Source of the DNA: Ophelia neglecta
Lineage: Eukaryota
Reading direction: 5' to 3'
NCBI GenBank assembly: GCA_965285935.1
Contig: OZ260667.1
Location: 52,886,001-52,950,000 of the forward strand
Length of the DNA: 64,000 bases
This document shows, piece by piece, positions 1,041 through 62,870 of the stretch. How positions within the stretch are numbered: the first letter of the stretch is position 1; each line of letters opens with the position of its first letter. A program made the position numbers and the translations under genes. The notes under the pieces are model-generated. The model saw only the letters and a program-made list of their open reading frames with translations. It had not been told where the DNA came from and ran no database searches.

Positions 1041-2822
1041 TTCAGCTAAATGTGGACAAAGTTCGTTCAAGGCGATTTCACGGTTGTGCTTAATGTGATT
1101 GTCAACTAGAATTGTGTAACTGCCTCATTAAGGGGCAGACGGAGTACATTTCCACTTCTCCCCAATTATCGTTTCTAGACACCGCGTCAGCCATGTGTTA
1201 TATGATATTTGTAACAAATATATCCTGAAATGAGACATATGTTAGAAACATCAGTAAAGCCCTATCTCATTGCTGGCCCTAAAGGCACTTATTCTACTAA
1301 CATGCAAGCCAAGAGTCATGCCTTTTAAAAGCCAAAACAGTGCCATATATGAAAAGTTTTGTCATGGTTTTGTCATATTTTTGTCCGTGTATCTGTATTC
1401 TTTGTGATCACTAAATTTACTTTGTCACATCCTAATCCGATGATTTATACACAAAGAGCGCATTATCGATTGACTGAATTCAATCATGTCCTGATTATAG
1501 AATAAACTGTTAAGGTCCATGGTTTGGTAAGCCATAGCACTGATGCTGCAAAACAGCTATTATTCGAATAATCCAATAATGTTCCCCCAACAATGAGTGT
1601 CTAGGACGAGCTTTTTATTACACACCCACTATGCCCTTGGTTTCCAAGCATCTATGTGTAATGGCACAAAACAACAAAGGGCACACATTGATCCGTTTTC
1701 GCATGTGTGCTTCTATGTTTGAAACTCAATGTGTGGCCAGTATCTATTTCCTGGCACAGCAAAACAAATGCAGATGGGTTCCCCGAGGCTTGATTACACA
1801 TGGTATCAATATATCCATTCCTATACGAGTCCATCCTAGTCAACACAATCACTTTGTATATTGCTGCCAGCACCTTTGTCCTATAGGAAGGCTTAAAGGT
1901 GCTGTGCCTTGCCAGGTCTGCAGTGTCTTCATTCAGGCTGTCTCCGCCGCAATCTGTGCGACGCTTTTATGTCAGGATATTTATGTAGATGTGCACCTTT
2001 AGCATGCCAACTAACGCCCGGTCGCTGTGCCACTGTAAGACGCTTCCTGGGCACAGCCGACAAGCGGCAATCGAGGCCTTCTCGGCAAACACTGTAAACG
2101 AGACCACATCACACACGCTCCCTATCAGGACCAACACGGAAGCCGTTTTCCAGTTGAGCGTACTCTGTTCACTGCAAAGAGATGGGCGGCTGAAGTGCGG
2201 TAAAATAACCCATATTATATCACTCGCATATCAAGTATAGTCTGATATACAAATTTAAGTGTGGTTGATTAGTAAATTTATGCAACCCCATAGGACAAAC
2301 TTGTTTAATTTTGATTATGGACAGGAAATGACAGAGACGCTTCGACTAAGAAAACCAACCACCTGTTACCCCTGACATTACCCCGTTCTGATTAATAAGG
2401 AATAGGCAAATAAATCCGTCCGAAGAACAAAAATCCGTCAACTGCAGGACCGCAAACACCAATATCGAGCTGTGCATGGCCTTTACTTAACTTTTCACGA
2501 GGGGATACAAGGTATACGGTTTTCCAGTATGCCTTTTCAAAATAAATCAACCGGACTGCGTAGGGTCGTAAATTTGATGATTATGTATTCGGTTATAGGA
2601 TGATTGCAAACTCACCTTAACACAATGCTTAAATCGTTCAAATCAAGGGGTCGCTTCTTTCATGCATTCAGTGCTGCCAACGGGAATTTGGTCAGACCAC
2701 TCATCGGTGGCCATCCGAGCAGTATTTCAAAATAGAGCAAAATATTTACTTCATCTCTGTCCTTGGGTGATCACTCACTCGTTTTATTTTGTGTTCTGAC
2801 TGGCATCATGCTAAACTGATGC

Positions 2823-3200
2823 CTACTTCTCATTGCAAGTGATATCTTTATAATTTTCATTATTTATATAATCGACAGGTTCATATACTACTTGGGAGCT
2901 GGTAATTAATGTATTGATGTGTGAAAGCATTTGGCTGTTGGTCTCTGGTGGTGATTTCAGACCGAATGGTATACTATTGGTATATTTATGCAGGGTTTCT
3001 AGTAGCAAGTAGGAAAGCGTGAATCTGGTCAGGAATCTTCTGTGCTATAGTTTCTGCCAACCTAAGTTCTCGAGCATGGATGAATCAGAGCTTTTGTTGT
3101 GCTATCTCCTTGTGAATCTGCTGCATCATGTCGATTTTGTGTTTCAGGGATTTACGCTGGTAGGGGTCCCCCACTAAAGACCAGTATTCGAAGGGCGGCC
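2823..3200 (-). mobile_element. Possible highly degraded Penelope-like element N-terminal relic
   Basis: The minus-strand translation LLETLHKYTNSIPFGLK resembles the FL..C...IIP.GL N-terminal motif of PLE ORFs. Frameshifted, and similarity judged by eye only. Confidence 0.25.
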
Positions 3201-3932
3201 TCACCAACACATGGAAGGCGGCTGATTTCACGCGCTGTTTACATTTGTTGATATTTTGTTTTGATGGGCTTTATTGCAGCTATTGGGGATATGGTTTCAC
3301 CATAAGAGATTGTTAGGTATTTTAACTCCGAGATAGGTTGTTAATGTGACATTTTCTATTATGGTCGAGGATTTTGTATCTCACATGTTTGCACATGGAA
3401 CAATTATATTTAATGTCTAATATTTATTGTTGTTTAACATAGAATTACCCTACTTCAAAATGAAAGAGGACTACAAGAAACAGAAAGAGAAATGCAGAAA
3501 TGGGGAGGTGTGATTAGTGTTTGTCACAAAGTGTAAATAGGAAAATAGTACTAAGCATATATCAATTGACCTTATGTTTCAGCATATTATGGAATTGAAG
3601 AGGTCTACACTCAAGTCTTTCACTCTATAAAATGTATGTCGGATTAGTCACATATAACTATTTTATTTGTCTTTGAATTGCATCCTATTGTCATGAACTG
3701 TCTCATTATTTGTCATCTCTTCAACCTTGCACATTTTTTTTACATAAGAGTTTAAAGATATCATACACGAAGTAGTGGGTTTGGTTTGATATACCAAGAT
3801 GTTCATTTAAAGCTTTGTTATTTGTTGTTGTATTACTTGGTCATTTGCACTTGTTACAAATCGCATGATAAATAAACTTGTGTATCCAATTTTTTCCTGT
3901 TGACTTTTCCTTCTGGTTATGTTTTCGTCATT

Positions 3933-4037
3933 TGTGTCACATCTAGAGGTAATATACAGCAATATTGATTATCCTAGTAGACAAACAAAATCAAATTTGA
4001 ATCGATATTGCTGTATATAATCTCTAGATGTGACACA
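3933..4037. repeat. 105-bp inverted repeat (38-bp arms, 29-nt loop); small MITE or hairpin
   Basis: tgtgtcacatctagaggtaatatacagcaatattgatt (3933-3970) matches the reverse complement of 4000-4037 at 35/38 positions. Confidence 0.85.
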
Positions 4038-5795
4038 GAGTTCTAAAACAGAGTTGTCTTCTTCACTAGAGAAAAAAATACTTTATGAGCTCGCGGGAAA
4101 ATTTCAACTTATTTGCTTCAAGAGAAAGGTCTTAGGTAATTACCAACTTAACCTTTAATTTGTAGCAATTTCTACGCTACACATTTGGCATAAAGCAATG
4201 TTGCGCAGTTAAGGAGCAGGAAAATCATGTATGCTTTTTTAATATATAAGCAATAGACTATGCAAATTGAAAAAAAAAAAAACACAAATTGTCCGGTATT
4301 ATATTTACTAATATGTATTTGAAATATCACAGCTACTATGCATTGGTAATACAGTAGTATGCAATTATGAAATACAGTGCTACGCAAGACGTGTAGTATG
4401 CCAAATGATTAATTTAGTGTTAAGAGTCAGGCCATGGTACTACTATGGATGTCGAAATATGGGCTACGCTTATTGACCTTGGCAAATAAGTCCTCTTAGG
4501 ATAAGATGTTCAAACATTGACATTAATGTCGACCATTTCCTTGATTATCGATTGTACGGTCGTCCATTGTCCTTACGGTTTTCCAATGTATAACAGTATG
4601 CGGCTTAATTTAGGCCGTGCAACCTCTATCTGGCACACAGGCCCTGCTTGGCCAGTGTACGAATCTGCTGGTGTTTTTTTAATGTTAGATACTTCGCATT
4701 ACAATTTATATAGTTTGTTTTTGTTTTTGCTGTCTTCCGGTTATGCACTCTTATTTACTTTATGGACAATGGGTTGGCCCGTATACCCTGTTATATTGCT
4801 TATAGCATAGTGTTTTGTTATGAATTTATAAATCGGTAAATAATGATTCAAAGCCACTCTACACATAACATTTACCATCTTATAATCGAGTATATAGTGG
4901 TAACGGTATCATTGGGTATATGACACTTTCGTTTGTTCGGTAGGTCGGCCCCTAAACCTACAAAAACGCAATATGGTAATAGGTTTATATTGTTAACCTA
5001 ACCAATCATTTGAATGGGAGGGGGGTATATAATGCGCTCCAGAGGCGTGCTGGTATAGGTCCGGGGCAAAATATTCTGGTGATGAAGCTCTCACTTACAG
5101 ATATGTTATTATTCAATAAGGCCATAGTCCTGGGGTACTGATAGCGTCCGAGACATTATTCAGAAGGCAGCTCTCTATATCCTTAAAATCATAATCTATT
5201 ATATTTTCCAGCTGAGCTTCATTTAACAATTTTTTGGTGGTCAGCACATTTGCTATCAAGCTTTCCTTATTTGATTTGTAGACGAAACCCGGTGTTTAAT
5301 AGGATAGCTAATAGATTGATTTATCTTTTATGGTGAAAAGGCGTAGGAGGTTTCGGTGATTGCTGGGGATGTGGTATGATTACATTTGTGAAATAATTGG
5401 CTTGCTTTGCACTTGGTCAGAGCCATTTTCATCCAATCAGCCGCCATCTGGAGCGACCTTAGCAGCGTATGATAAACAATATCAGAACGATATTCTCGAG
5501 TTGCAGTGCTTATGAAAGTATGCTCCTCATATTAATGCCATTTATAGGTGACATTTCATGTTTAGACAGACACCAGCTGCAAACATTATTATCAGTCAGT
5601 ATCTTTTAGCAGAACATGGCTTTTATCGATGTCTATTATACCATTATTAATTGCAGAGTAGTAAGGTTGACCCGTCGAACGGGCCATTCATTACTTCATG
5701 TCATGACCAAGGCATTCAAGAACTAGGCTAATATCCCTTATTTACTTGCAGTTATGTGTAACAAGTAGGTCTTGGTCGAGCATTGAAAGCTGCCC

Positions 5796-5857
5796 GTGCG
5801 CCTGTAATTCCGGCTACGTGTGAGCAATCAGCATATTGGAGCCACTCCAGCCTGGCG
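5796..5857 (+). other. 7SL/SRP Alu-domain-like fragment (degenerate)
   Basis: gtgcgcctgtaattccggctacgtgtgag resembles the 7SL/Alu 5' segment GCGCGCCTGTAATCCCAGCTACTCGGGAG (23/29). cactccagcctgg (5843-5855) follows about 20 nt later and matches the 7SL/Alu 3' segment. Confidence 0.3.
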
Positions 5858-6452
5858 TTCAAAATGCGTAAATCAATATTCCTCTCTGGTATTGTCAACC
5901 CGTTGACTGAAATGAGTCCGTGGTCCTTGGACCTGCCACCCGGCCCAATTCAAGAGGTACGCGGCCCGCCTTTATATCAATCTTCAGAGTTCACGTCCAA
6001 TATGGCCCATGACCACTTGTATGGCATTTTCGGTCCAGATATATGTTATGTCCATTTATGTATTTGGTTTAAACATATTTATTCGCTGGCTTCCCTCAAT
6101 AGGTAAAAGCTAATCAAGGAGGGTTACCAGATAATATACAAAGTATAAATTTTACAATAAATTCTGTTTTTCGCTAGCTAGATATTCACACAAACTATTT
6201 ACACGTATGTTATAATGATCAAACACGTAAAAGTACAGACAGATTATGCATCACATGAACGAGAAATTATTAATCAGGGAAATAATTATAAAGCCAGTTA
6301 GATACAAGAGATTAAATCTAACAATATAACAAAGTACAAATACCAGATAACAATCAATGGATTACTGAAAGGGGTTTGAGTGCAAATATTTGGTGTGATA
6401 GTGAGAATGGTAAGATGGATGGATGGATGAGTAAATGATTCTACAGCAGTGT

Positions 6453-10541: not shown

Positions 10542-11180
10542 ATGGCCGATGCAGACACTGTAGAGTTCGATGCTGATGTGAAACATGTAAAAGTGGTATT
10601 CCTTGGATCCCTAGGCGTCGGAAAAACGTCTATTATACAACAGTTTGTCCGCCAGGAGTTTGGCAAATATAACGCCTCCACACGGCGGCCGGAGTGCTAT
10701 TTTCCGAGTTTGGTAACCAAAGATCACCTCTATGAGGTGAAGATCGTTGACTGTCCCATGATTCCGTATTTTCCGGAAAACTCGATTAGTGAGTGGAGGG
10801 ATTATCGAGGCTACGGGCTACGCAATGCATCAGCATATGTGTTAGTATTTGATGTCACCAATGATAATACATTTGATTACATACGAACAATAAGGGATCA
10901 ACTTTTAGACAGCTTTGACACTAATGATGTTCCAATTGTGGTTGTGGCCAATAAGCATGACCTATTAGAGGACCGTACTATGCATAAAAAGGAATTTGTC
11001 AGCATAATAAGAAAGCAATGGAAATGCGGATACTTTGAATGTAGCGCAAAATACAACTGGCATATCATGGCTCTGTTCAAAGAGATAATGCGAGTGGTGG
11101 ACTGCAGTGAGCTAGCACACAAACAAACCTCAACTCGGATGCAGGACGCACTTAGCAGGAACCACTGTGCTATAATGTGA
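10542..11180 (+). CDS. RASL10B: Ras-like protein family member 10 (RASL10B-like) small GTPase, 212 aa, intronless CDS
   Basis: G1 GSLGVGKT, atypical G3 DCPM, the RASL10-specific insert PYFPENSISEW, G4 NKHD, WKCGYFECSAKYNWHI and C-terminal RNHCAIM (CAAX), all matching RASL10A/B. 5'UTR acceptor ttgcag| at 10307; AATAAA at 11547-11552. Confidence 0.93.
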   Translation: MADADTVEFDADVKHVKVVFLGSLGVGKTSIIQQFVRQEFGKYNASTRRPECYFPSLVTKDHLYEVKIVDCPMIPYFPENSISEWRDYRGYGLRNASAYVLVFDVTNDNTFDYIRTIRDQLLDSFDTNDVPIVVVANKHDLLEDRTMHKKEFVSIIRKQWKCGYFECSAKYNWHIMALFKEIMRVVDCSELAHKQTSTRMQDALSRNHCAIM

Positions 11181-15887: not shown

Positions 15888-17125
15888 GTCTGCAGCAGAC
15901 GGTTTCTGGAGATACTTGCGGGCCTGCAGCAGTCGGTTTCTGGAGATATTTGGGGACGTTTAGCAGAAGGTTTCTAGGGATATTTGGGGCATGCAGCAGA
16001 CACTTTCTGGAGACATTTTGGGGCATGCAGCAGACGGTTACCAGGGATTTTTGGGGCATGTAGCAGACGGTATCTGGAGATATTTGGGGGCGTATAGGAG
16101 ACGGTTTCTAGGGATATTTGGGGCATGCAGTAGACGGTTTCTGGAGATATTTGGGGGCTTGTAGCAGACGGTTTCTGGAGATATTTGGGGACCTGCAGCA
16201 GACGCTTTCTGGAGACATTTGGGGGCGTGTAGCGGACGGTTACCAGGGATATTAAGGGCATGTAGCAGACGGTTTCTGAAGATATTTGGGGGCGTGTAGG
16301 AGACGGTTTCTAGGGATATTTGGGGCATGCAGTAGACGGTTTCTGGAGATAATTGGGGGCTTGTAGCAGACGGTTTCTGGATATATTTGTGGGCCTGAAG
16401 CAGACGGTTTCTGGAGACATTTTGGGGCGTGTAGCAGACGGTTTCTAGAGATATTTTGGGCATGCATCATACGGTTTCTGGAGATATTTGATGCATGTAG
16501 CAGACAGCTTCTGGAGATATTTGGGGGCGTGTAGCAGACGGTTTCTGGATATATTTGTGGGCCTGAAGCAGACGGTTTCTGGAGACATTTGGGGGCGTGT
16601 AGCAGACGGTTTCTAGAGATATTTGGGGCATGCATCAGACGGTTTCTGGAGATATTTGGGGGCGTGTAGCAGACGGTTTCTAGGGATATTTGGGGCATGT
16701 AGCAGACGGTTTCTAGGGATATTTGGGGGCCTGCAGCAGACGGTTTCTGGAGACATTTGGGAGCGTGTAGCAGACGGTTTCTGGAGATATTTGGGGCATG
16801 CAGCAGACGGTTTCAAGGGATATTTGGGGGCATGTAGCAGACGATTTCTAGGGATATTTGGGGGCATGTAGCAGACGGTTTCTAGGGATGTTTAGGGGCG
16901 TGTAGCAGACGGTTTCTGCAGATATTTGGGGGCGTGTAGCAGACGGTTTCTGGAGATATTTGTTGGTCTGCGGCAGGCGGTCCCTGGCGATGCCTGTGCT
17001 GCTGCACCAGACGGTTTATGATTATGTTTTTGGGCGTGTAGCAGACGGTTTATGATTATGTTTTTGGGCGTGTAGCAGACGGTTTATGATTATGTTTTTG
17101 GGCGTGTAGCAGACGGTTTATGTAG
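15888..17125. repeat. Minisatellite, 33-34 bp unit (~37 copies), consensus GCAGACGGTTTCTGGAGATATTTGGGGGCGTGTA
   Basis: Tandem units are directly visible. The array ends in about 3 near-identical copies of a variant unit, GCAGACGGTTTATGATTATGTTTTTGGGCGTGTA (~17008-17110). Confidence 0.95.
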
Positions 17126-19624
17126 ATGTCTGTGCGCCTGTAGTTTACGGTTTCCATTTATGTATGCATCCAGTTCCTTGTGATATTTGGGGCTTATAGA
17201 TGACGGTATCTGGTGATTTGTGTGGGCCTGCACCGGCCGATTTGTTAGACTGATATCTAACACCGTGACTTTAGAGCTGGGTTCAGAGTCATTACCTACC
17301 CATATGCGTCATTTGAACCCTAGAACTATTGGGGAGATATCTGCTTATTGCCTGCAGTCTATATGGTTCTGTTATAGGCCCTTTACAATTAATCAGACAA
17401 ACATGACTTGATTGATATTCGAAGTGGCGACTGCGGTACATTGACATCTCGAACACATTATGAATGAACATGCTTAGCCAGGCGTTGCAAGCCAGACGGG
17501 CTGCTATCGATTACTGCAAAAATCGACTTTTCGTGTTCATCTCAATCTCTAACAGAAAACAGGAGTATATACTCGGGAGACAGAGCTGAATAATCGTTCA
17601 TGGATAGCCTATTAATTCAGCCAGAAATCATCAGGGACCTTCAGCAGATTTTACTTTCACTGAGAAGAAGTCACTAATTTTTCATAGTTTGAAGCACAGC
17701 ACAGACGAAATAGGCAATGAACGATTATATATCACATGACAAGGGTACCCCTAAGTATCCCCTTGGAGAGTGGCACCCAGACTAAGCTCTCTTGCTTCGA
17801 CCCTTACAGGTTCAGAATGGAGTTAATATCTGCCTTTCATAGTATAAAATTTCCAGTAATAGAAGAAGATATCTCATATGTTGGATTGTCCATCAATCAG
17901 AAATGAAATATGATTTACATATCTAGCCATTGACCCATTCCCAGGGGCAGTGCTTGCCGACTGCTTGTACATTGCTTGTAATGAGACGGGCTGCCGTTAA
18001 AAATTCAGACAGAACAGAAGCTTAAATAATTTCCTGGCATTGAACGATGCTATAGGACACATGTGTCTTAATCTGACAAGCTAACAAGTCGGGCACTACG
18101 CATTCTGTTATTTAGAAACATATAATTTAGTTAGCAAATATGTGAGCATTGTAATAATGTTCACCTGTTGCATGGGAATGACCCCCGTATGATAAACAGA
18201 AACGTTTACCATATTTGCAAACTAGAGCAAAAACATTTTCTCGGTCACAATAAAGAGGTGATCATTTGTAAATATTTTTCTATTATAATGTAGCAAGCAA
18301 ATCAATGCATTTCAGTTTGTAAAATCCTACATTATACTTAGTGTTTATATAATCTTCTATGAACATATGTTAAGATGGATTTTTCAAGAATAAATGGCAC
18401 ATATGGGTTGGCTACAATTCAAAAGTGCCACCTTGTCGCAAAACAATCCGTGAAAAATGTGCAGGGAGAGCATACCCGTAGAATACTTTCAACCGTAAAA
18501 ATTCGAACATTTTGGCAAATATGCCAATGGCTTTAATAATAACATTTTCACGAGTAGATGTGAAAATGGCTCCAGCGCAAAGATAAATAGTCCATGTGTT
18601 TAAAAAAGCAGGTATAAAGAAATCCTTCTTTTGGCCATTCGTGCCAAAAACAGATTATATCACAAAAGAACTCTTCGACACTGAGGCACCAGCTCGTTAC
18701 CCCCTCTCTGTTTCAATGCACTTGGAAGCAGCAATGATTGTCAGCTTTGTCGTTCATTATTGAAGCAGAAATGTAAAAGTGGACCAATTAGGATAATTTA
18801 GGAAGGACAATTAATCACCGTCTAAAAAATCTATGAGAATATTGGAACCCTACAATAATTATATCAGAAAGATGTGCACTTGAAACACTACAGGAACATT
18901 GGAATTCGGGTGTTTTTGACAAAGCAATTAACCGATCAGACCCGATCTTTGAGCATGCAAATTAAATTGGTTGGCTGCAATAAAAACATAAATACGACAG
19001 TATTATTAACACCTGCCAATCTGATACCTTGAGTATAAGCGATAAAACCTTGATGCACATGTCACCCGGTAGAATGCTTGTGCCACAGGCACATTCCTCG
19101 TCAGAAGACGATACCACTGTTGATAAAACGATCGATAGGCTTAGCGTACCATAGAACGACAAACGGCCATAAGGACTTGGCTTGAATTGCATCTGCCACT
19201 TGAGCAGACTGACGCCAGGGCCTCAGCTCTATAGAAAGCGTGATTTGTAGTTCAATCAGACTGATCAATGTGGATCTCAGGTTACAATAAAAACTGCCTG
19301 GGACACATATCGAATAAATACCATCCACGAAGGGTGTGTCATTAATTTCTACTTGCACGCAAATTGATACGTCAGCAGCTATGGATTGACCAAATTAATC
19401 TCATTGATGTCGGCCAAATAAAACTACTGCTTTTGAATTGATGGGGATACATTCGTCTCGAGTCTTAATTATATAAGAGAGCTTTGTCCATCCTACATAA
19501 GACTCTCTTTGTACATATTTTTTTCATAGTCCTAGGTTATCTCTAGCGTTTTTGTTGTGCTCAAACTGGCTTCATGTGTGCAAGTACTCGTTTATTGAGC
19601 CAATACACATTGGATCTCTTATCT

Positions 19625-49715: not shown

Positions 49716-52700
49716 TTATTCATGTCTTTCGTCCACTTCCTTTTTATCGACGACATTTTGTCTCCTCCGAAACCCATTAAATTTGAACATTTCAGAGGTG
49801 ACATGTATGAGGAAATCTACAAATTGTGCCGCAGTCAACAAGGTCATTCCTAAAACAAGACCGAGGGCGCCGCCTATGTCACAGAATAAGGCGAGTGTGC
49901 TGTAACCAGGATATGACGTCATATCCATGTAGGCAGTTTCCTCGATAAACACTGACACAATAACAAATTCATCTCTGATCGTTGACTCTGGAAATTGCCT
50001 AGCGCCGGTTTCTCCAAGCCTCTTAGCAAGTGCTTTTGCATAGTATTTGGAAATGATTGAAGAAGACAAGCTGTAACCATAGTGAAAATGGTCACATTCT
50101 CTAGGGCAGTCACATTCCGCCAGCTGGTTTTCTGAATAATAATCGCGAATATACCTATTCGCACATGTTACCCATTGGATGGGGTTACACACGGGGACAT
50201 CACCTAGACAAAGAATGATACAGTTATTAGACGCCAGTTAAAGGCAATAGCTAGTTCATTTGATAGTTAGCTTCTTTCATTTTACCCGCTTTCCACAATG
50301 TAAAATAGATAAATACATCTGATCTCCCAATTCGTAAGACCATTCAGGTTCGATGTATTTTTATTTATCTGTATAGATATATTACCTGTCAATATAGAAT
50401 AAAACGTGTTTATATTAACCAAGGAAATTCATTAGGTCGACACAGTCGGTACACACACACACCTGTTTTCCCCTTCATGTTAACGATACATATCTAAGAT
50501 GGCTAGGCCAAGCAACTACATTAGAAATAGCATTCCTTAAAGAACCTAAGGCGATTCCCGGATTATTCTGTTTTTAAATTATTATTAAACATGTATTGTC
50601 AACTCACCGATCATGTGTGGCAACATACATCCGCATCTTTCAATAATATATTCACTTTCACACATCACTGTACATCGGCTGGCTGTGTAGTTATTCTCAT
50701 CAACACATTCACCATACGGAGTTGGTAATTCTTTTATCTACCAAAGAATGAATAACACTATAACTCTGTATCACCCTTGTGTCAGACGTGACCCGCCCCC
50801 CCCCCCCCCCCCACAGTTATCTAATATGGAAAACTACTCCAATACCCTTTTTGTTTCTCACATATAACGCTATGTGAAAATTGGACAAACACAGCTTGGC
50901 TGCGAAAACTCTATGATAAATAATCAGTCTGTAGAACTGCGAAGCACGGAAACAGACATTCGACAGAAAATTAATTAAGAATAGCCTATAAAAAATTGAA
51001 ATAAACAGGAAACACCGACTGCAGGCTCATGCACATCAATCCCCAGCCCAAAAGGAAATTTGTCTAGCAATGAGAGGCAACACTGATAGCCCTTGTAATC
51101 TAGATAGGATCTTAACCACGATGAGAGTCAGAGTAGACACATTAACACACTTGAAACTCAGTTGTGTCCGAGTAGACACGGAAACACACTTGAAACACAC
51201 TAGTGTGATAATAGAAACAAAATCACGCTTGATTACATGTTCTAGTTTTACGGCGACCTGCGTGTTGTATCCTGGATAAAGCTTCAATGCCAGCTCTCGT
51301 ATCAGCGGAATTTCTTCAGGTGAGTGAAGTAACAACTGCGGGAATTAAAAAAATATAGTATTAATAAAGCTATAAACATATGTCTCAGGTAAGTGGCTCC
51401 CAGTTATAATTTAAATGTGTTAAAAATAGCGAAGTTGTTGTTCTACTTACAGTCATATCTATAGCATTCGACCATGAAACTACCGTTCATAGACAAACAT
51501 TGATAAAAGGGAATTGGATCAATTCCGATCAGCTGGGAAAAATATTCTCATTTTTCCATTAAAGTCATAAGAGTCCCCCCGCCCCCCGCCCCCCCCCCCC
51601 CCGCCCCCACCACCACAAACACACAGGCACTTTGTTCCCGTTCGTTGGACAAGTAAATTGGCCACACTATCATATTCACAGGAAGTTGAGTAGTATATTA
51701 ATATTTAATTAGCCCACACAGAGATGAATAGCCTACCATTTGTCATTCAAATCCACTCACAAATAGAGTATCCTATTACCGGTTTGACTTAAAATCAATC
51801 AATTGTTTTTGAAAAAATTGCGGGGGCAAAGTGCGGGAGCGTGGATAAAAACAAATGACGCACGAGAAACAGGGCCGGGATCTATTGCTATTTTCGTAAC
51901 CGCATCCGCACATTAGCAAGTCCCCAATCGATGCGGCTGCCCTATGACAAAAATATAATACCGACCCATTTATACCAATTTGCGGTTGAGTAGTACATTA
52001 ATAAATTATTATGACCTGAGGTCCGTTCCAGATTGAATAGATGTACAATTGAAAAGGGACAATTTGACACTAATATCATAATATACAGAAGGGTTCACTG
52101 AATCGCTGCGGTGATTCGCCTTCTAACGGTGCTCATAGCAGCAAAAGACGTGATATGGAATTGGTCACAATACACAATGAGCCAGTTGACTGATTCGTAA
52201 GGTCGCATTTTCCAGTACTCGATTATGGCACATTTAAAAAAGGAAAATAATAAAACGGAAGAGAGGTATATAAAATTATAACGTTCTGCTTGATACCAGT
52301 AGCAACATTTACACTTACTCTGTGAAACTGGAGCTGAACATGTATACCATATGTTAGTTTAAATCTATATCGACTGTCTCGGGAAATATCTGACCCTAGC
52401 ACGATTAAAACTACTTTACTGTTTTATCAAAAATTGGCATTTAATTTTATCTAGCCATATGCCTAATGATATTTGCACCATACTCACTCTAAATCCGGCG
52501 GAAAATGATGTTGGATACAGGTAGTCTGACTCATTTATATTTAGGACGAGGAACAGACCGTTTAAAGTTCCAGGTATCTTGGCTGTCAGACTGTTAAATT
52601 TGCTTGTAGCTGTTACAGAAACAGAATTAAGAATATCTGTATTTGGACAGGCTCCTTTAGAGTTAATATGCTCCTATGTTTTCTATATAATTTATAACTC

Positions 52701-54399
52701 AAGGAGATATGAACATGGACCATTAAACAACGAAACCTGGATAGTAAGACGTACATTTTATGACTGGTACACGTTTCCGCCAAAATAGACGAGTATATAA
52801 GCACGAACTGGGTTTATTACCTGCGTTGAAAGTGTAGCAATGTCCACCATTGGTCCATACCGGTTCAAAGTATGAGACATTGCAAAAATGTCCGTCCCAC
52901 ATGCACTTCATTATTCAAAGTACCGTTTCAAAATATGATAATACACAATTAATTCTAAGTAAACATGAGCAAACCTAAGCTAAATCTATGGGGGAGGAGT
53001 TATATAAATGTTGACTAGAAATGCTGTGTGATCAGAATTTCTCACCAATTACATATAACCGACAATAGACAGTGCCTCACCAATTGACAACGTCATATGT
53101 AGTTTCTTTGTATCGTGCGAATGATATTATGTGATACATATTAAGCAAAAGACTTTGAAATGTTTATACCGACCATGAACAAATGTTTTGTAACGTTCGT
53201 AGCTATATGCCTGTATCGCATATCCCACGATACGTTCATTGCTGTGAAGTCGATCCCTGGGTTAACCGGCATTTCAAAGATCGGAGGAAACATCAACTCA
53301 ATCGTCTCGGTTATCCCTTTAGGAAAGAGTGCATTGCAGATTTTATTGACCTTCAATCGAACATTTAAACACTAGAATGTTTATGGCGCATAAAGACACT
53401 TTCAGTTGCTGGTGTAAAAATGCCTCAATTTTAAAATAAAGTTTTAACGGCGCATTTTGTGGTCATGAAAGCAACAGCCCACAAGCCGCTTGCCCCAGTG
53501 TCGGCGCATCTCAGTAGAGTTGTGTATTACTAGTCACATAATGCACGTAGAGAGGCGGGAATACTACTGAAATTAACTTATCCTGCGCAAGTTTTCACTG
53601 TGCCAGTGGAAATAACTACGAGCTACGATTTGATTTGAAGCATAATCAGTTGTGTATATTAGACCATGAAGTTTAATTTTTCTCTCACCTTCATTTTTAA
53701 TGTAGGACGCGATAGCTAGGTGGTGGGCATTGAACAAATTGTAATTTCATAGTTTCCCCTTGATATAATACTGCCTTTTTTCAATTAATAATGAGGAGCC
53801 ATCGTGGCATGCAGCGGCACACTAAGGAAGCCTTACGCCCTTTCAAAACTAGCTCCTTGATACAGTATTTAAGAAACTTACTTTCTGCGTCCGTCGCCTT
53901 CCTTGAGAAGATGTTTTCATCACATATCGTGACGGCAGGGAATGGGATTGACCCTTTGTCTTTGATCTTTATCTCCACTCTCACGGGATTGCTGTAATAC
54001 TCTATATGACGGTCTACGATATTGTACGCAGTAAAGCCTACTCCTACAATGTGTATTATCATTTGATGTATCGAATTTTTATATACCTCTCAAGTTTCGC
54101 TGACGGTGACTATATGCTCTGAGCCATCAGCTAAAAAGCATTCGGTCAATTTGTACATCTCTCATTTGTTGTATGAAGTTCTGCATAAATTCTAATAGGA
54201 TTTTGTAACATAAATATCATAAGAAAACGATTCGTATTAACATACCGGATATGACGAGGATGCTCCAAATGATAACTCGAAGGCCATTGCTCTCACTGCT
54301 ACATATGTATTTCAAACCAATGACCGACACGTCGTCCGTGAATACTTTTAACCGCCGTTTCCCAATTGCGCCGAAGTTGTGATTATATCTCTCTTCCAT
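49716..54399 (-). CDS. DEG/ENaC (ASIC-like) amiloride-sensitive cation channel subunit, paralogue A; 8 coding exons, 460 aa
   Basis: Exons, all GT-AG and in frame: 54399-54246, 54043-53882, 53316-53174, 52905-52821, 52609-52488, 51335-51237, 50737-50608, 50203-49716 (1383 nt). Motifs: TM1, FPAVTIC, GHCYTFN, LLHSPEEIP, Cys-rich thumb (PYGEC..CGC..CDCPREC), TM2 LFCDIGGALGLVLGMTLLT. Confidence 0.93.
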
Positions 54400-54988
54400 T
54401 TTTATTTCGTCTTACTCAGTCCGGAGCCTGGGGTTAAAGTATGTTGGACCCACCATTCCGTTTCATATGTCATCAATCTTATTGTATACTGGTTTGGAAT
54501 TACTTCGCTTTTTCGAATTATACCACAATTACACAACAAGATTTTTCCAAAAAGATGCGCTTGCATCTAGAAATGCATTCGACAGTCCTATGCCATTTGG
54601 GCCGTTTTAGTAAAATAAGAACAGCGTTATTAGAAAGTCATATTCGTTCCACAATCTATAATAGTTATCCTGCAACAGTTATGCTTAGTGCATGAATAAT
54701 GTAAGTATATTAATACATTTTGACAATTACCCCCAGTTAATCGTTTTCTCGACGATCCATAATTAGATCAGATTCATGTCCTCCATTAGATATTTTTATG
54801 CCTCCAGCACTTAGCAGCCCCCGGCACGATGGAGAGATAATGCATTGAAACAAATTGCCAAATTGGCCATGTCGGATTGCATTCGTTGTTGACTACCTGT
54901 TTTTATGTGTGTCTCTTTGCATCCCAGACGCAAATATGCTCTGGCCATTGGACATTGTTCATCACAGTCTGCTTTTAACAATAAATAA

Positions 54989-55360
54989 GGGGCCGACCAT
55001 TTGATATTGTAGGGGGATGTGGTGGGGGTTGGGGTGGGGATGGAGGGGGGTAGAACAATTTAGAAACAAAACGTTTGTTGGCCAGGTCTGAAAAAAATGT
55101 TTGTCACACTACTTGAGAAATAGAAAAGCAAGGCCAAATATACAAAGAAAAAAATCAAAAAAGCCTATTATCTTGTTGATTTGTCTTATTGTATACCTCA
55201 AAACAAGTTTCAAATATGATCTTCCAGAAAAATTAATATTTGCCGGGGAATTTGGAGGAAAAAGAATCGTTTTGGAGGAGGCAAAAAAATGTTTTGAATT
55301 TGTTTTTACTACCCCCCCCCCCCACCCCCCCCACCCCTACATTATCAAATGGTCGGCCCC
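54989..55360. mobile_element. PIF/Harbinger-type MITE, 372 bp, with G/C-rich subterminal tracts
   Basis: TAA|GGGGCCGACCATTTGATAtTGTAGGGG ... CCCCTACAtTATCAAATGGTCGGCCCC|TAA: 26/27-bp TIR and a 3-bp TAA TSD. Confidence 0.9.
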
Positions 55361-55564
55361 TAAGAATGCAACAGACTGAAAATAATTTTGTACACTGTAA
55401 ACAGTACTTATGGAGAGAGAAACAGTGCCGTTAATATTAGAATACCACCATAGCGTTTCCCCTGCCAGCACTTCACTAAATCACCCTTCCAATTCGTTTA
55501 ATTTAAAGCCATGACACTATCCTGACACAGTATGAATTTGTGTATCGCAATCCCTGGGGATAAG

Positions 55565-55800
55565 TTGATTAATTGATTGATTTATTGACGTTTATTGACG
55601 TCCCTTGCGGTAGCACCGGTTAGCCCAGCGATATCAGCGACACTACCTGTTGGGCTAAATCCCCAACCCCGAGGTCATCAGAAACTGCATTGAGCTTGGG
55701 GCTATCACAAAGAATAGAGTCGCTTTGCTAGCTGGTGCTGAGTAAATCCTACTACAATTACCAGTTATGTCTTGACAGTTAACACACGGCCTGGGAGGAG
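55565..55800 (-). mobile_element. Possible SINE relic with an (AATC)n-type 3' tail
   Basis: ttgattaattgattgattttattgacgt reads as a minus-strand simple-repeat tail next to a GC-richer body. No clear Pol III boxes. Confidence 0.3.
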
Positions 55801-57563
55801 AATGTAACGTATATGGATGTGACACATTTTGCAAAAAATCCCCTTTATGCAAGCAACCAAAAGAGAGGACGGCGATGTGCTTTTATTCAGTTTATCCAGT
55901 ATATTTTATCATTCAATGTGTGATATTCATTTTGAGGCTACTGTGCCGACATGGTATCATATTCTTCCCAGACAATTTCCCATACAGAGCGTTGTTTACC
56001 CCGCCTGGTTTACTTTTTGTAGGAACAATATATTCAACAACCACAATAATTTGGGTGCTATTGTTTTATGAAACGCCATATATTTCAAAGCGGGTTTATC
56101 TTGTAAATTATTGTATTCATATTTCAATGAAGCACATAGAATATAATTTTGTTTAACCATAAAACGAACTATTACAATAACCATTCCTGTTTAGCAGCCG
56201 CGAATCGGCTGTAGAGCGAGTTTTATAGGTAACATGCTCGTATTCATACAGCAAATAGGACAGCTTTAAATGGCCACCAGTAGTCCTTGTAAGTTTAAGG
56301 GCGCATTTCCGGTTTACTTGTGAATAACCTTCTTTATCGCTCGTAAGAGTTCGTTACATTCAAATCTAAAACTACTTTCATGTCGTTTTGGTAGCATTAA
56401 AATTAAATTAATTCGTAAACAGTAAACTTTCCAACATTGACATCGACCGTCGGATTAGGGAAAAATTAGTATAGGAGTCGGTATTTTCAACATATCGTAT
56501 ATCTGCATAGGCTTTGGGATACGGAAAGTGATTTGAAAAAAATGTTAAACCCTTTTTAAGAGAATGTATTGGGCCAAGATCTTCTTCACTGGTAGAAAAA
56601 TGTTGTGTGGGCAGATCGCCTGTCGTCAAAATGAAGCTGGCTTTTGGGTCTTTATTTAACCGTAGCAATGACGCGAAGCAAAACAGTTATCCGCGGTGGC
56701 AGTCAACATCAAATAACTCTGATCCAACGGCTAATTGCTCGGCCGCGGTGTCTCATGCACATAAACCAAAAGATCATATAATGTCAATACATATTGTTAC
56801 CTAGAATTGAGGGTCACTGACGTACAGTTGTACCGCTCGCAATATTATTCGGAAACATCACATTGGCAAATTAAATGTATTTTATATACATAAAAAATAT
56901 GGAACTATTAAAAGATTTATTAAAGTGTACCTGGCCTAACGAATTCTCCATCTATGATTTACCTATTCATTTTATGCATTGAATTTAACTATTTTTCATG
57001 GACACGTTTGACAAACACTATGTTTTACATTGTTTGCTATGTGTGACCTCTCCCCTGCACTTAAGCACAGCCACTTGCTGGTGTCTTTGTTATTTGTTCT
57101 GGCAGCATCATGCACACCATTAGTCAAATAATTAACACAACCATTCAGTAGTCTGGGCCAAAATGGAAAACGTCATACTTCCAGATCGAAATGGACTGTT
57201 TGTAAACCATCGATTATGGATGACCCCTTGGAGCAATTCCGAATTGTATTTCGTTATCCTAGACATTTTACAACCCTTCCCAGGAGACTGTGGACAATGT
57301 AAATATGCTTCAAGTCCGTGTACCAAGTCATTAAAAAATTTTGATCAATAAACCTATGTAATACATGTCACCAGCTTCCATTTTACTAATTTCTACCTTC
57401 TGATGTTGACCGAGACTATATGTATAAAACACGTTCCCAATATAACCAGACGTGCATTCGATAAATCTTGCACACATTACTCTGTAAGCTGCATCTGCCG
57501 CTATTTCCAAATACATTATTGCTCAGATCATTTCGATAATACTCGGAAAGTGATGACATCGTC

Positions 57564-60500
57564 ATGGCAAGAGTGAAAAAGACGAACATATCTATAGCAC
57601 CTGATCAAAGAGGTAATGTAACTAGTAACAAGGGAGAAGTTAACTGCAATTCATTACCAGCGCTGTATAATCCTTCGTTCCCTCGGCCACAACTTCAGAA
57701 GGAGTTCAACGAGCAACCGGAAGCGGTAGGGCACAAAGGGGGCCTTAGCGTAATTATAAAGAGCAGATTACATCTATTTGCCGCTGATGTTTCTATAGTT
57801 GGACTCAAATACGTCACGGCTAGTGGCAGCAATTGTGCACGGGTGCTTATTTGGAGTATTCTTATTTCTGTGGGTAAGTTTTTTTTAAAGATTCTAACAA
57901 TATAAATAGCATACAAAATAAGAAAACGATTATTTACATTCCAATAACTAAAGTTAGTTTGTGTCTTGTGAATGAACAAGGGACTGTGTTTTGGGAATGA
58001 ACAATGGACGAAAATTGATCTTTAATTTTTGATCATTTACCAGGTATAGGATTCACCTTGTTTAATATCTCAGACCGTTGCGCTAGTTATGAAAGCAACC
58101 CGGTGAGAGTAGAGGTCAAGGTCAAGGACAAAGGGTCAATACCATTCCCTGCCGTCACCATTTGTGATGAAAGCTTCTTCTCCAAAAAGGCCGCGGGTGA
58201 CCAGGGTATGATATAAGACGCCCGTTTTGTTAATTCAAACATATAAGTAGTGGCATTAGCTCTATAACAATAGCCCCTGTCTGATACGAATTTTGTTCAT
58301 CATCAGAAATACATAAATGTCACTATCAACAGGGCTAATTGACACTATAGAAATGCTGTTTCCACCACCTTTCAAGACGCCAGTCAATCCCGGACTCGAT
58401 TTTGCTGCAATGAATGTGTCTTGGGACAAAAAATATCTAAGATTGGTTCCGAATCTCATCGAACAATTACGTATGGTGAGTGAACAATTTATAATTGTTA
58501 AACTTGATTCTGGTCATTTTCCCTGAATATTTCATGGATGCTTTCAGCAGTTCTTTATCATTATTTATATCGATATGGGCCTATGATACAAGCTTTCTTA
58601 GCATTTGCTTTTAAATAAGCCTATTTTTTTTCCGAATCACCTCACCAGGGCTTGTTTCCTCGCTCCAGTTAAGGAAACATTAACCAGGAGAAAAACTAAA
58701 TACTGAGGCGCGAGCAATTTAAGAATTGCCACAATGGGTGCACCGGAATCGATTTACACGCTTTCTAGAAATATCTAATTCAAGACATGCCATGATGATT
58801 AGGACAGTCGTTATGTTTCTCGTCGATTATGGAGTGGTGCTTTTTAAGGGAGGGAGCGGCGGTAGTTTCAAATAACTGTGTCCCGATCTGACGGAGGAAG
58901 GGTTCACTCAATTGTGATACGGTCCAATGGTGGACCTGAATAGAAGAGAAGGAAAGGGCGAATTGTTGAATGCAATAATAGTATTCCACTTTCGTATCAC
59001 AATAAAGTTCTAATAATGAATGAAATTTGCATCCCATCTGCACTTTTTCTTGGGAGAGGCACCATTTTAGTGGTGCTAATACCTCCCCCGCCCCTCTCCA
59101 AAATGACCATATCATTTTTGTTATGAAACCTCGATTTGAATCAGAGAGAAGATTGGCACAACGTGGTATTGTTTTCATATTGTGTTCGTTATGGTAAGAC
59201 TTTCTGATGTTTTAATCAAGACGGCATTCAAAGAAGCGGTGTTTAAAAATGCCCAGATATTAATCTGTAAATTTAAGTATAGCAGTCAAATGGACTTGGT
59301 TAGTTTCGGATTGACTGTTTTTTTTTATGCTTCAGTGTTTCTGGGATGGTGAGCATTGTAACAGCACTTACCTCCAGCCCATCTGGACCAATATTGGATA
59401 TTGCTACACATTTAACTCAGGTTATTATTTGACTAAAACAACCATAAGTAATGCTTTCCAAATTGAATGAGAATTTATATTGTTAAGATTTTCTGGTCAT
59501 ATTCGAAAAATTTTGGATATTTTGACTATGTTGTTTTATGCTTTTAACCTTTGGATAGGGTCACTGATAAACCAATTCCTTTTCAGCTGTTAGTGAATTC
59601 AACAACCTGACCGCCCGGTCACCTGGTACAGTGAACGGCCTATTTCTCGTGATGAGCAGTAACGAGTCGGATTATCTCTACCCTTCTTATTTTTCTGCTG
59701 GGTACAGGGTAGGTTGGCAGTACAAAGTTCGCATAGAAAATAGATTAAACAGTTCCCTCAGTATAACTTTTTGTGTGATACTGTTTAAACTTTCCCTAAG
59801 GACATTACGTATTTTAGTTAGTCCTTAATGATCTAAATAGTCAGGTATAACCATCAACATCACGTCGAAAGCCAACTGATAATTCCAATGCACTGCCTGA
59901 TTTCGCAAATTCACTTAAGAAACAAAAAGGTTTATTACCCAAGAACACAATTTCAATAATCGTAAAAGCAATAATGCATATCACAGAAAACGCTTTCTGC
60001 TTGGAGAATGAGGCGCAAATGTTCAAATTTTCCAATGGTCCGAAATAAAATCATCAGATCTCTTATCACATAGCAAATAAATGGCCCACATTTTTTTCCC
60101 AGAGCCCGCATGACATTTACTAAATACATAAAGAGATTTTAAGACTTGAATTTAATCATAATGATTGAACGTGTGTCCATGGGTGTTCGTGTTAAACTAT
60201 AGGGCTTATAAAGACTTTAAGTAAATATGTCTAGAAATGCAAAATCGCAATGAACAGCTATCAATTGTGGCAATATATTCAGAAAAGAATGGGATTGGAT
60301 AACCGGCAAACTAAGCCAAATCTGTCCGAAATCATCACAAGCCAAAGCCCCACACTCATCAATTAATCAATCTACAATTCATCAAATGTAAAAAACAATC
60401 TGTTAAAAAATAAATCATTCCAAAACAATATGATAATTGATTAATATAAATAATTGATATTGCTTTCAATAAGAAGTAGCCAGCAGTTTTCGATGATGCC

Positions 60501-62870
60501 AAACAGATTTCCAACCAATGAGGCAGTGGTCGGACAGAGATGAAATATGCCCCGAGAGAGCCTATGATGCTTAAGCTCTCATAATATTTAGGGATTATAG
60601 ATGAAAGTGTTTCTGCAAAGACAAGACCAAAGAGAGTGTAAAACTTCCCTGCATACTACATAGGAAATATGTCAAAGTAATGCGTAGAAAATCGCAAAAT
60701 AGTGTCCGAGGTAGTACTAAATTCTTTATAACATAATAACCATTTGATATATTTTTACCAACTACTGAGTAAACGCAAAATGACAAATAATGGACCTTAT
60801 GCAAAATTGCTATTTCCCTCGTGGCGTTATTTTTATTGTCATCACTATTAAACCACAGGGATATGTTTTGCGCAGTTACAATGCAGTGAAATCTGTGCAA
60901 GGCACTAAATTATGTAATTCAAATCTCCAGCATTTCTTAAAAGAATGTTTACTAAGCAATTGTTTTGCCCCCGCACCTATTGCTAGGTACTGGACCCGGA
61001 TGAATATATATCATTTTTGCACGATATTCACATTAAACAGTTTTCATTTTGAGGCACACACTTAATAATGGCGTTAAACGTTCTTTTAGTTGTTGCTTCA
61101 TTCCCCGGACGAAATTCCATTGATGTCAGAGTTTGGTCTCAAGGTTAACCCTGGATATCACAACCAAATAGCCATACAACTTGAGCATGTGGGTATATAA
61201 TATAAATGATATTGTTGTCCATATATTAGCAGGTCATAAGATCTATGAGTATCTGAAGTCCATGCGTCACAGAAAAAGCGATATGCAGTAAGAAGAACGA
61301 CTCATGCAGCCTTAATTCTTGAAAAATGTGATACACGTGTTCACATTCATTAAGTCATACTATCGAAACTAAGAAGTATATTGTCATCGTAGTGTTTAAA
61401 AGCATTAGCTATATTATATAAAGCAACATTAGTATAATGTAAGCAGAGTTAAACATGTTAAGCACTACTGACTTAGGTGAAAGAATTGCCGTCTCCATAC
61501 GGGGACTGTGTGGATGACATAAACTACAAGATCAGCAACTGTAATGTAGCTTGTGCGAGTGAATACATCATAAAGAAATGTGGCTGTAGACTTCCGAACA
61601 TGATTGGTAAGTGAAGTGGGATGTGACTGTCTGTATTTGCGGTTAGAAAAAAGCAAATTTCAAATATAGTGACAATATTTGAACGCTGCTTCCCTTATAA
61701 GTCACTGTGTATTTTGTCAGTTTCCGTTCGTCACAATGCGACCTCTAACAACCAGTGAGGTTACCCTTCCTCCATGTTTTATGTGTTGGTTTATGAGAGT
61801 TCTTTTGACATACCATTGACAAGGGGAAGGCTCAAAATAAAAAATTAAAAACATTGACACACAAAAAAAGGCAAATAACCCGATGCAGGCATTTGGCGAA
61901 ATAGAAGCACAAAGTCATAAGAATGCTATAAAAATCAACAGAAAAAGAGTATAAGTAAAATAACATGTCCTGGCATAATATTCCTGAGCGAGGAAAATAA
62001 AGTTCGCAATTTCCCAATTTTAAATATATTCCAAGTTTCAATAAAATTGACCATTGTGGCCTTGCGAACCAACATATTATAAAAGAATGGCCTTATACGT
62101 GTATATTATGAAAGTCATCGAGACGCTTGTCATGTTCATGTTTATCGCATTAGCGAAAGAGAGCTAGAGCTAAACTTAATCCAATCGCATTGTCCAGCGA
62201 CATGTATACGAGACACATATAAAGGTGCTTGATTACAGCATTAAACCTAGTTTCTGTTATGTTTCTCGTTGGTATAACAACAATAATTATTTGACATGAA
62301 CCTAATATATGAAGTAAAGTATCGTAAAAAATTGATGTCATATACTTCCGAGAATTCAACGAGTTTTTACTTTTTATAGGCGACGCCCCGACGTGTAACC
62401 CAAACCAATGGACAATGTGCGTTAATCCACATTTATTCAAATATAAGTCTCAAAATCGGTTAGCAGAATGTAAATGCCGCCGACAGTGCGATCGTCTCAA
62501 CTATGGGTACAGAATTTCAAGCGCGAAAATATCCAAATACTACGCAAGTGCAATTCTCAGCAGGTTTCAGGAGACAGGAATAGAGCATATCGGATTTCAA
62601 GACATCAGAGACGATCTAGTTGTTATATCTGTTTTCATCGAGGAGACTGCCTACCTCGACATAACATCATATGCGGACTACACCACTCTCTCACTGTTCT
62701 GTGACATAGGTGGCGCCTTAGGTCTTATTCTCGGAAGTACAATGTTAACTGCTGTAGAATTTGTCGATTTTTGTGTGCTCACAGCCGTTGATATCATCCA
62801 CTTTAAAACATTGGGCCGGAGCAGAAAGTCCAATGCTGGAAAAAACAAAACGCCTTCAGAGTACAAATGA
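57564..62870 (+). CDS. DEG/ENaC (ASIC-like) amiloride-sensitive cation channel subunit, paralogue B; 8 coding exons, 513 aa
   Basis: Exons, all GT-AG and in frame: 57564-57873, 58044-58205, 58333-58475, 59336-59420, 59587-59708, 61090-61188, 61477-61606, 62380-62870 (1542 nt). Motifs: FPAVTIC, GYCYTFN, LLHSPDEIP, PYGDC..CGC..CKCRRQC, TM2 LFCDIGGALGLILGSTMLTAVEF. Confidence 0.93.
60532..60595 (+). repeat. Dispersed GGACAGAGATGAAATA repeat (copy 3, intron 5 of paralogue B)
   Basis: Shares the 16-mer and downstream GAGAG..CTCTC with the copy at 19625-19683. Confidence 0.55.

Follow-up and report, generated by a model that had tools for sequence, protein, structure and literature searches.

What kind of pore is formed by a DEG/ENaC channel in which the His-Gly (HG) motif ahead of the first transmembrane helix (TM1) no longer has its His, and the Gly-Ala-Ser (GAS) belt of the second helix (TM2) ends in Thr? 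The question is raised by two genes, here called A and B, in a stretch of 64,000 nucleotides from Ophelia neglecta (assembly GCA_965285935.1, contig OZ260667.1, positions 52,886,001 to 52,950,000 of the forward strand); this whole stretch is the window, and all coordinates refer to it. The answer towards which we lean, with some caution, from sequence, structural models and analogy with studied channels, is that A and B belong to an ASIC/BASIC-side branch of the family in which the His was replaced early and the loop around it was kept, and that they would be weakly selective cation channels, closed at rest. Published papers are cited for those of their passages that bear on these points.

Two intact genes arranged head to head

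Inspection of splice sites and translation of the window revealed two intact DEG/ENaC genes, placed head to head:

49716..54399, minus strand: gene A, DEG/ENaC subunit of 460 amino acids, with GT-AG introns and an open frame; 8 exons (54399-54246, 54043-53882, 53316-53174, 52905-52821, 52609-52488, 51335-51237, 50737-50608, 50203-49716)
57564..62870, plus strand: gene B, DEG/ENaC subunit of 513 amino acids, with GT-AG introns and an open frame; 8 exons (57564-57873, 58044-58205, 58333-58475, 59336-59420, 59587-59708, 61090-61188, 61477-61606, 62380-62870)
54400..57563, no strand: spacer of 3.2 kb between the start codons of A and B, in which no HG-bearing first exon was detected

All 14 introns are GT-AG, neither frame contains an internal stop, and the six internal exons of A match those of B in length (162, 143, 85, 122, 99 and 130). 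The hallmarks of the superfamily are present in A and B, namely two transmembrane helices flanking a Cys-rich extracellular domain (14 extracellular Cys are common to the two), the TM1 Trp and the FPAVTIC motif. The Pfam family ASC (PF00858, gathering cut-off 23.6 bits) was recognized in both genes, in exon 8 with 72.8 and 67.4 bits, and in exon 2 with 31.6 and 36.5 bits. The proteins are 57% identical and, over 415 codons, the proportion of synonymous differences (pS) is 0.79 and that of nonsynonymous ones (pN) 0.23; since pS is saturated while pN is not, the codons identify A and B as old paralogues, long under purifying selection.

It might still be argued that the unusual motifs described below come from decaying pseudogenes, or from gene models that miss another first exon carrying HG, an eventuality which the first-pass annotation of this locus had itself raised. 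Profiles made from mixed N-termini, and from 10 His-bearing N-termini only, were therefore scanned over 2942 translated segments of the window, and in both cases only the two known first exons were significant; no alternative HG exon was found in the window. Considering also the open frames, the canonical introns, a pN far below pS and the recurrence of a loop without the His in annotated proteins from many species, we regard this explanation as very improbable. In contigs of three runs the A-B region has even depth, and the pieces of A exon 1 show a 1-letter difference in two of them, the runs coming from one sample and one study and thus giving no independent support.

Two repeats lie within the pair. 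The spacer contains a 374-bp element with 50-bp terminal inverted repeats (54988-55361), whose contig depth of 2700-6000, compared with about 10-30 nearby, points to a high-copy repeat resembling a miniature inverted-repeat transposable element. Immediately beyond the donor site of A exon 6, a 39-bp unit is present in two copies and a partial one (51127-51243), the third of these overlapping the end of the exon; in the intron no stop interrupts the frame for about 65 codons.

Pore motifs of A and B

The TM2 register was set by aligning A and B directly, without gaps, to chicken ASIC1, and the register ahead of TM1 through a profile of eight relatives, in which S-I-L-G was paired, again without gaps, with T-L-H-G of ASIC1. 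The pore elements located in this way are the following:

54304..54342, minus strand: pre-TM1 re-entrant loop of A (Phe20 to Ile32), by alignment to the relatives' profile
57777..57815, plus strand: pre-TM1 re-entrant loop of B, by alignment to the relatives' profile
49881..49883, minus strand: Cys406 of A, degenerin site (TM2 -1'), by gap-free alignment to chicken ASIC1
62700..62702, plus strand: Cys458 of B, degenerin site (TM2 -1'), by gap-free alignment to chicken ASIC1
49842..49850, minus strand: belt G-M-T of A (TM2 10'-12')
62733..62741, plus strand: belt G-S-T of B (TM2 10'-12')
49824..49826, minus strand: Gln425 of A, at the TM2 18' selectivity position, which is Glu in B

The translated gene models confirmed the pre-TM1 segments noticed in the first pass, DVSVIGLKY in A (residues 23-31, 54333-54307, minus strand) and DVSIVGLKY in B (residues 75-83, 57786-57812). 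The His position of ASIC1 is occupied by Ile27 in A (54321-54319) and by Val79 in B (57798-57800), and the following Gly (Gly28 and Gly80) is retained. The claim that HG had been lost is thus right for the His and wrong for the Gly, which is invariant in all 25 His-less proteins of the set described below: the motif is halved, reading Ile-Gly in A and Val-Gly in B. TM2, which is LFCDIGGALGLVLGMT in A and LFCDIGGALGLILGST in B, has G-M-T or G-S-T in place of the G/S-x-S belt and Cys at the degenerin site, as had been annotated, even if TM2 of A falls outside the interval 54310..62770 assigned to the feature; Gln18' of A is a further pore change, absent from that annotation. Both proteins retain the loop Phe, hydroxyl, Gly and Ile/Val, the TM1 Trp, the upper pore positions Asp0', Gly3' and Gly6', and Gly10', and both have lost the His and the TM1 Phe4'. 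These motifs are not due to chance, because they are common to two synonymously saturated paralogues and to many relatives.

Distribution of the motifs among relatives

The two last exons were searched with HMMER against 1.84 billion representatives, obtaining 1513 matches at E <= 0.001. The best 150 were examined, a sample enriched by likeness to the query in which 12' is Thr in 73, Ser in 73 and another residue in 4, and 18' is Glu in 139 and Gln in 9; because these nine share it, Gln18' of A has recurred. Seven of the nine have Cys at the degenerin site beside Asp0' or Asn0', and several also have Thr12'. Names were looked up for 30 database matches. His-less full-length relatives were found in Lingula, Helobdella, Dimorphilus, Haliotis, Littorina, Batillaria, Ptychodera, Patiria, Diadema and Lytechinus; the relatives without the His are annelids, brachiopods, molluscs, hemichordates and echinoderms (five phyla, plus further records). 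A group with this pore and no functional study had been suspected, and it does exist, in annelids, brachiopods and more widely. Most of its members would escape the pattern proposed for retrieving it, S[IV][IV]G plus CDIGG..GL.LG.T.

Motif counts were made on 36 proteins with both ends readable, drawn from 39 of at least 390 amino acids plus later finds; the rows are related to one another and the counts are not independent. Proteins with a missing or mis-predicted N-terminus, or a fused model, were dropped (P0013, P0021, P0062, P0079, P0081, P0087, P0092, P0106, P0108, P0119, P0124 and P0133, of which P0124 is apparently His-less with Ser12'), as were P0022, which has an internal duplication and is His-less with G-S-T, and P0144, for which the longer P0158 of its cluster was taken instead. 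The set comprises 25 His-less and 11 His-bearing proteins. The residue three positions ahead of the His site is Val or Ile in 24 of the former and in none of the latter; at 12' the His-less proteins have Thr (12), Ser (12) or Leu (1), and all 11 His-bearing ones have Ser. The first-pass annotation had treated the loss of the His, Thr12' and Cys as one coupled set. A strict three-way coupling is rejected by these counts, with Ser12' in 12 of the 25 and Ala or Ser instead of Cys in 11; on this sequence sample Thr12' and Cys are nested within the His loss, not coupled to it. Met at 11', considered as a special feature, was also rejected, since it occurs in 3 of the 11 His-bearing rows. A mirror image is offered by P0176 (His-Ser) and P0108 (His-Asp), which keep the His and lose the following Gly.

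Concerning the degenerin site, it had been suggested that its Cys makes these channels leaky, or that it provides native gating through thiols, redox or Zn2+. The residue is indeed common: the best 150 of the 1513 matches have Cys in 75, Ser in 38, Gly in 21 and Ala in 16, although the Cys count is enriched by the query itself, and in the set of 36 it is found in 14 of the 25 His-less proteins and in none of the 11 His-bearing ones (Ser 7, Gly 4). Within the branch, however, it swaps with Ala (6) and Ser (5), and six of the seven Lingula rows carry one of these two instead of Cys. At the degenerin site of MEC-4, Cys behaves as a small, non-toxic residue. In published work the small residues Gly, Ala and Ser leave channels closed at rest and large ones, such as Thr, open them (10.1101/2022.05.24.493282). 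A leak is not expected, because Ala and Ser also occur in place of the Cys, and these are the small residues typical of closed wild-type channels; redox gating appears doubtful. A thiol or Zn2+ handle is possible, since ASIC2 mutants with Cys or Val at this site are activated by Zn2+, methanethiosulfonate (MTS) reagents or amiloride (summarised in PMC5383329). Taken as a whole, leaky or Cys-gated channels seem to us a distinctly unlikely outcome.

A metagenome scan, whose pattern required Cys or Ser at the degenerin site and left 12' free, gave 78 loci (from the best 80 of 110 confirmed stretches), many of them near copies, and G-S-T was found in 75. Nine first-exon matches (six distinct) were recovered in these loci, all reading S-V-[VA]-G-L; every one lies downstream of the matched exon and thus belongs to the next gene of a tandem. 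Tandem arrays of His-less G-S-T channel genes were observed on the metagenome contigs of L023, L029, L042, L044, L046, L050, L055, L073 and L077, with a very uniform TM2 sequence that suggests recent expansion on a large scale in an animal host. Other searches were less productive: no match to B exon 8 was obtained among the 284 candidates of a word-index search, two alignment searches yielded only 10 and 8 proteins, and the ESM Atlas returned generic ASC clusters only.

Phylogenetic placement

Trees were calculated on columns of the extracellular domain only, with all motif positions excluded. In a tree of 32 rows, the 22 His-less rows are all on one side of a branch (support 97/87). In a tree of 36 rows, where this grouping falls to 22% of bootstrap trees, a spiralian His-less group (88/93) and an echinoderm group (93/75) were recovered, and a single His-less clade is not rejected by the approximately unbiased test (p-AU 0.42). 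Thr12' needs three changes on the tree, and a single clade of Thr12' rows is marginally rejected (p-AU 0.039, for a group defined by its motif after the earlier tree had been seen). A and B are closest to each other (100/100) and are placed with annelid rows without strong support, a position that by itself makes the animal probably a spiralian.

The profile of the relatives scores 345 bits with ASIC1, 295 with BASIC, 212 with ENaC alpha, 199 with FaNaC and 71 with PDPNaC1, and by these sequence scores the branch belongs to the ASIC/BASIC side (clade A) of DEG/ENaC. The three ASIC rows form a separate clade (100/100), apart from A and B. At the residues used as a criterion for proton sensing in ASICs (PMC10507113), A and B have Val at His73 and Ile or Ser at Lys211, with a basic residue one position upstream; because of these two replacements, on sequence, they are not ASICs proper. 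P0162, which is named BASIC-like, fell outside the His-less set, in a tree holding no other BASIC or DiaaNaC sequence.

Comparison with known channels

ASIC1 (PDB 6vtk, 6ave, 9e4a) gives the best sequence and fold matches of the branch, and ASIC-type matches are about 30-33% identical to A and B. The TM1 Trp, Asp0' and Gly3', Gly6' and Gly10' are shared with ASIC1, and the modelled loop and belt have a similar predicted geometry. Unlike ASIC1, A and B have the HG His replaced, Thr for Ser12', Ala for Gln4', Cys for the degenerin-site Gly, Val or Ile for TM1 Phe4' and, in A, Gln18', besides the changes at His73 and Lys211.

A channel with no HG and a G-x-T belt has been published before, namely C. 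elegans DEGT-1, which has G-A-T and is the sole Thr12' channel in a comparison of 18; its gain-of-function form DEGT-1d has a PK/PNa of 1.7 (PMC8536179), and DEGT-1 is a functional, amiloride-insensitive homomer (PMC7933985). DEGT-1 resembles A and B in the missing HG and in Thr12', but it is much longer (its degenerin site is residue 813) and has Ala at the degenerin site. It belongs with the ENaC-side degenerins, the comparison here being of the motif pair only, and its likeness to A and B is probably convergent. Centipede PDPNaC1 (PDB 9jf7), which has no canonical HG, is functional with broad monovalent cation selectivity (PMC12714832); in contrast to A and B it keeps G-A-S, and it is distant, at 71 bits versus 345 for ASIC1. 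HG is therefore not universal in DEG/ENaC, as DEGT-1 and PDPNaC1 are also without it.

BASIC keeps both HG and GAS (PMC12283945). BASIC/ASIC5 and DiaaNaC are on the same side of the family as the branch (295 bits to BASIC) and likewise do not have His73. Brachiopod DiaaNaC prefers Na+, has Asn0' and has no Lingula orthologue (PMC11750451), whereas the branch has Asp0' and many Lingula members; on these two grounds DiaaNaC was rejected as a member.

Sequences of the branch are already present in published data. In PMC9949801, whose alignment starts at TM1 and so after the His-less motif, the rows Lana_g9004 and Lana_g5241 are matched in the TM1 stretch by the Lingula proteins P0024 and P0031, and a Novocrania row stands beside them. 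PMC10507113 refers to clade A groups of annelids, brachiopods and ambulacrarians that are uncharacterised, and its files include a starfish sequence without the His and G-S-T sequences of Lingula type. In the passages of these two papers bearing on the groups there is no mention of the His-less loop or of Thr12', and the Helobdella gene numbers of the branch are not named in PMC7992859, on leech neurons, as far as its main text is covered here. In the full-text literature covered, which excludes most subscription papers and so cannot establish absence from print, no title or abstract opening concerns the pore of the branch or a tested member. On sequence evidence, the finding extends to a whole clade and is not peculiar to A and B; it has a single precedent, which is probably convergent.

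Structural models

Relatives, predicted as monomers, stood in for A and B, and the fold of two such models matches ASIC1. The AlphaFold model of Dimorphilus P0173 (Val-Gly, Cys, G-A-T), computed from 55 rows, has a mean predicted local distance difference test (pLDDT) of 89. Ahead of TM1 it has a helix-loop-helix, with pLDDT 57 over residues 1-10 and 81 over 11-20, and its TM2 is broken at G-A-T; residues 1-408 superpose on 17-445 of full-length cASIC1 (6vtk) with Z 29.6 and a root mean square deviation of 3.0 over 383 residues. The model suggests that the re-entrant loop and the belt persist without the His. A pore of distinct architecture had been proposed for A and B; at the level of the fold this is not supported by the relative, whose model superposes on the cASIC1 loop and belt.

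A proposed weakly selective pore, closed at rest

In ASIC1, it is the side chain of this His that makes up the lowest constriction, and it is bonded to Ser12' in the adjacent subunit (PMC7308080; PMC8594623). The mutant H28A of mASIC1a loses Na+/K+ selectivity (PNa/PK 0.8), T26S is near wild type, and bulk at TM1 Phe4', where A and B have Val/Ile, is required for selectivity in ASIC1a (PMC8404453); hASIC1a E452Q is non-selective (PMC8594623). By analogy with H28A and with DEGT-1, reduced selectivity would be the likeliest outcome, in line with the non-selective pore envisaged in the first-pass annotation, and a branch widespread in invertebrates probably passes several cations rather than mainly sodium.

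We propose that the His was replaced early in the branch and that the loop itself stayed. With the His gone, its hydrogen bond to Ser12' would no longer constrain the belt, and 12' may later have drifted to Thr in several spiralian lineages, a permissive order suggested by the nesting of Thr12' within the His-less set. The more hydrophobic loop, [VI]-S-[VI]-x-G, would pack beneath the belt and the lower constriction would be looser or greasier, so that the trimer would conduct with little preference for Na+ (PNa/PK near 1-2); A would be the least selective, since Glu18' is also absent. The canonical upper pore (Asp0', Gly3', Gly6') would keep the channel closed at rest until an extracellular stimulus opens it, by a route other than the ASIC His73/Lys211 proton site, and the degenerin-site Cys would be one of three tolerated small residues.

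Several points weigh against this proposal. Monophyly of the His-less rows is fragile, because with the four rows added to make 36, among them a long-branch His-bearing Haliotis protein, their clade appears in 22% of bootstrap trees; the His-bearing rows are just 11, all taken from matches to the query, with no BASIC, HyNaC, TadNaC, ENaC or FaNaC outgroup. The P0173 model is that of a relative, as a monomer, with pLDDT 57 over residues 1-10, and it may echo the family, given that its alignment included His-bearing ASICs; in the AlphaFold model of Lingula P0024 (8 rows) the N-terminal loop is unresolved, with pLDDT below 50. Pre-TM1 mutations of ENaC alter conductance more than selectivity (PMC8404453), ENaC alpha S589T, at 12', remains impermeable to K+, and the DEGT-1 permeability data derive from a gain-of-function mutant (PMC8536179). 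Because ENaC keeps its selectivity with Thr12' and pre-TM1 changes, ASIC1a mutants may not predict the behaviour of the branch.

The same ENaC results, in which these changes are tolerated without K+ permeation (PMC8404453; PMC8536179), would fit a pore that was rebuilt but compensated, in which the room left by His and Ser is taken up by the hydrophobic residue of the loop and by Thr12', and Na+ selectivity is maintained. Such a pore would agree with the conservation of key TM2 positions, as Asp0', Gly3', Gly6', Leu7', Gly10' and Thr15' are invariant in the 22 His-less rows, Glu18' is present in 21 of them and the loop hydroxyl is kept in most. It is hard to reconcile, however, with the weak selectivity of the natural His-less channels described in the cited literature (DEGT-1, PDPNaC1), with the position of the branch on the ASIC side, where loss of the His abolishes selectivity, and with the missing Glu18' of A, and we consider it rather unlikely.

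About as unlikely, in our estimate, is that A and B are subunits of heterotrimers and not self-sufficient, A (Gln18') assembling with B (Glu18'), or either with a His-bearing subunit, and tuning selectivity or gating; this would be compatible with the weakly selective pore proposed above. The two genes are head to head and 3.2 kb apart, tandem copies exist at other loci, most H28 substitutions leave homomeric ASIC1a almost silent, with too little current to measure (PMC8594623), and HyNaCs are obligate heterotrimers (PMC4212090). On the other hand, DEGT-1d and PDPNaC1 function as homomers without HG (PMC7933985; PMC12714832), and large expansions with near-identical pore motifs, such as the 75 of 78 loci with G-S-T, fit ligand diversification equally.

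A bolder scenario, to which we give little credence, would have a single His loss before the protostome-deuterostome split found a subfamily, later lost or unsampled in vertebrates and expanded in annelids, with an Ile/Val hydrophobic lower gate, a non-selective or K+-preferring pore, the Cys as a Zn2+ or thiol switch, and A-B heterotrimers whose selectivity would depend on the ratio of Gln18' to Glu18'.

Other features of the window

33-1124, minus strand: long single open frame for a DXD-motif glycosyltransferase (Pfam Gly_transf_sug)
10542-11180, plus strand: single-exon Ras-family small GTPase with a CAAX-like C-terminal motif
15890-17127: 34-bp tandem array of about 37 copies, with long spurious open frames on the minus strand

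Significance for the DEG/ENaC family

Where DEG/ENaC channels select Na+, whether at the GAS belt, at Glu18'/Asp21' or at the HG loop, is still disputed, and the branch offers a natural, presumably functional series for this question: all its channels are His-less, the echinoderm, hemichordate and mollusc ones keep Ser12', B and those of Lingula have Thr12' together with Glu18', and in A Thr12' is joined by Gln18'. Together with DEGT-1, as a probably independent case, the series probes whether the His and Ser12' are one structural unit. Many annelid, brachiopod, mollusc and echinoderm proteins called "acid-sensing ion channel-like" may be neither acid-gated nor Na+-selective.

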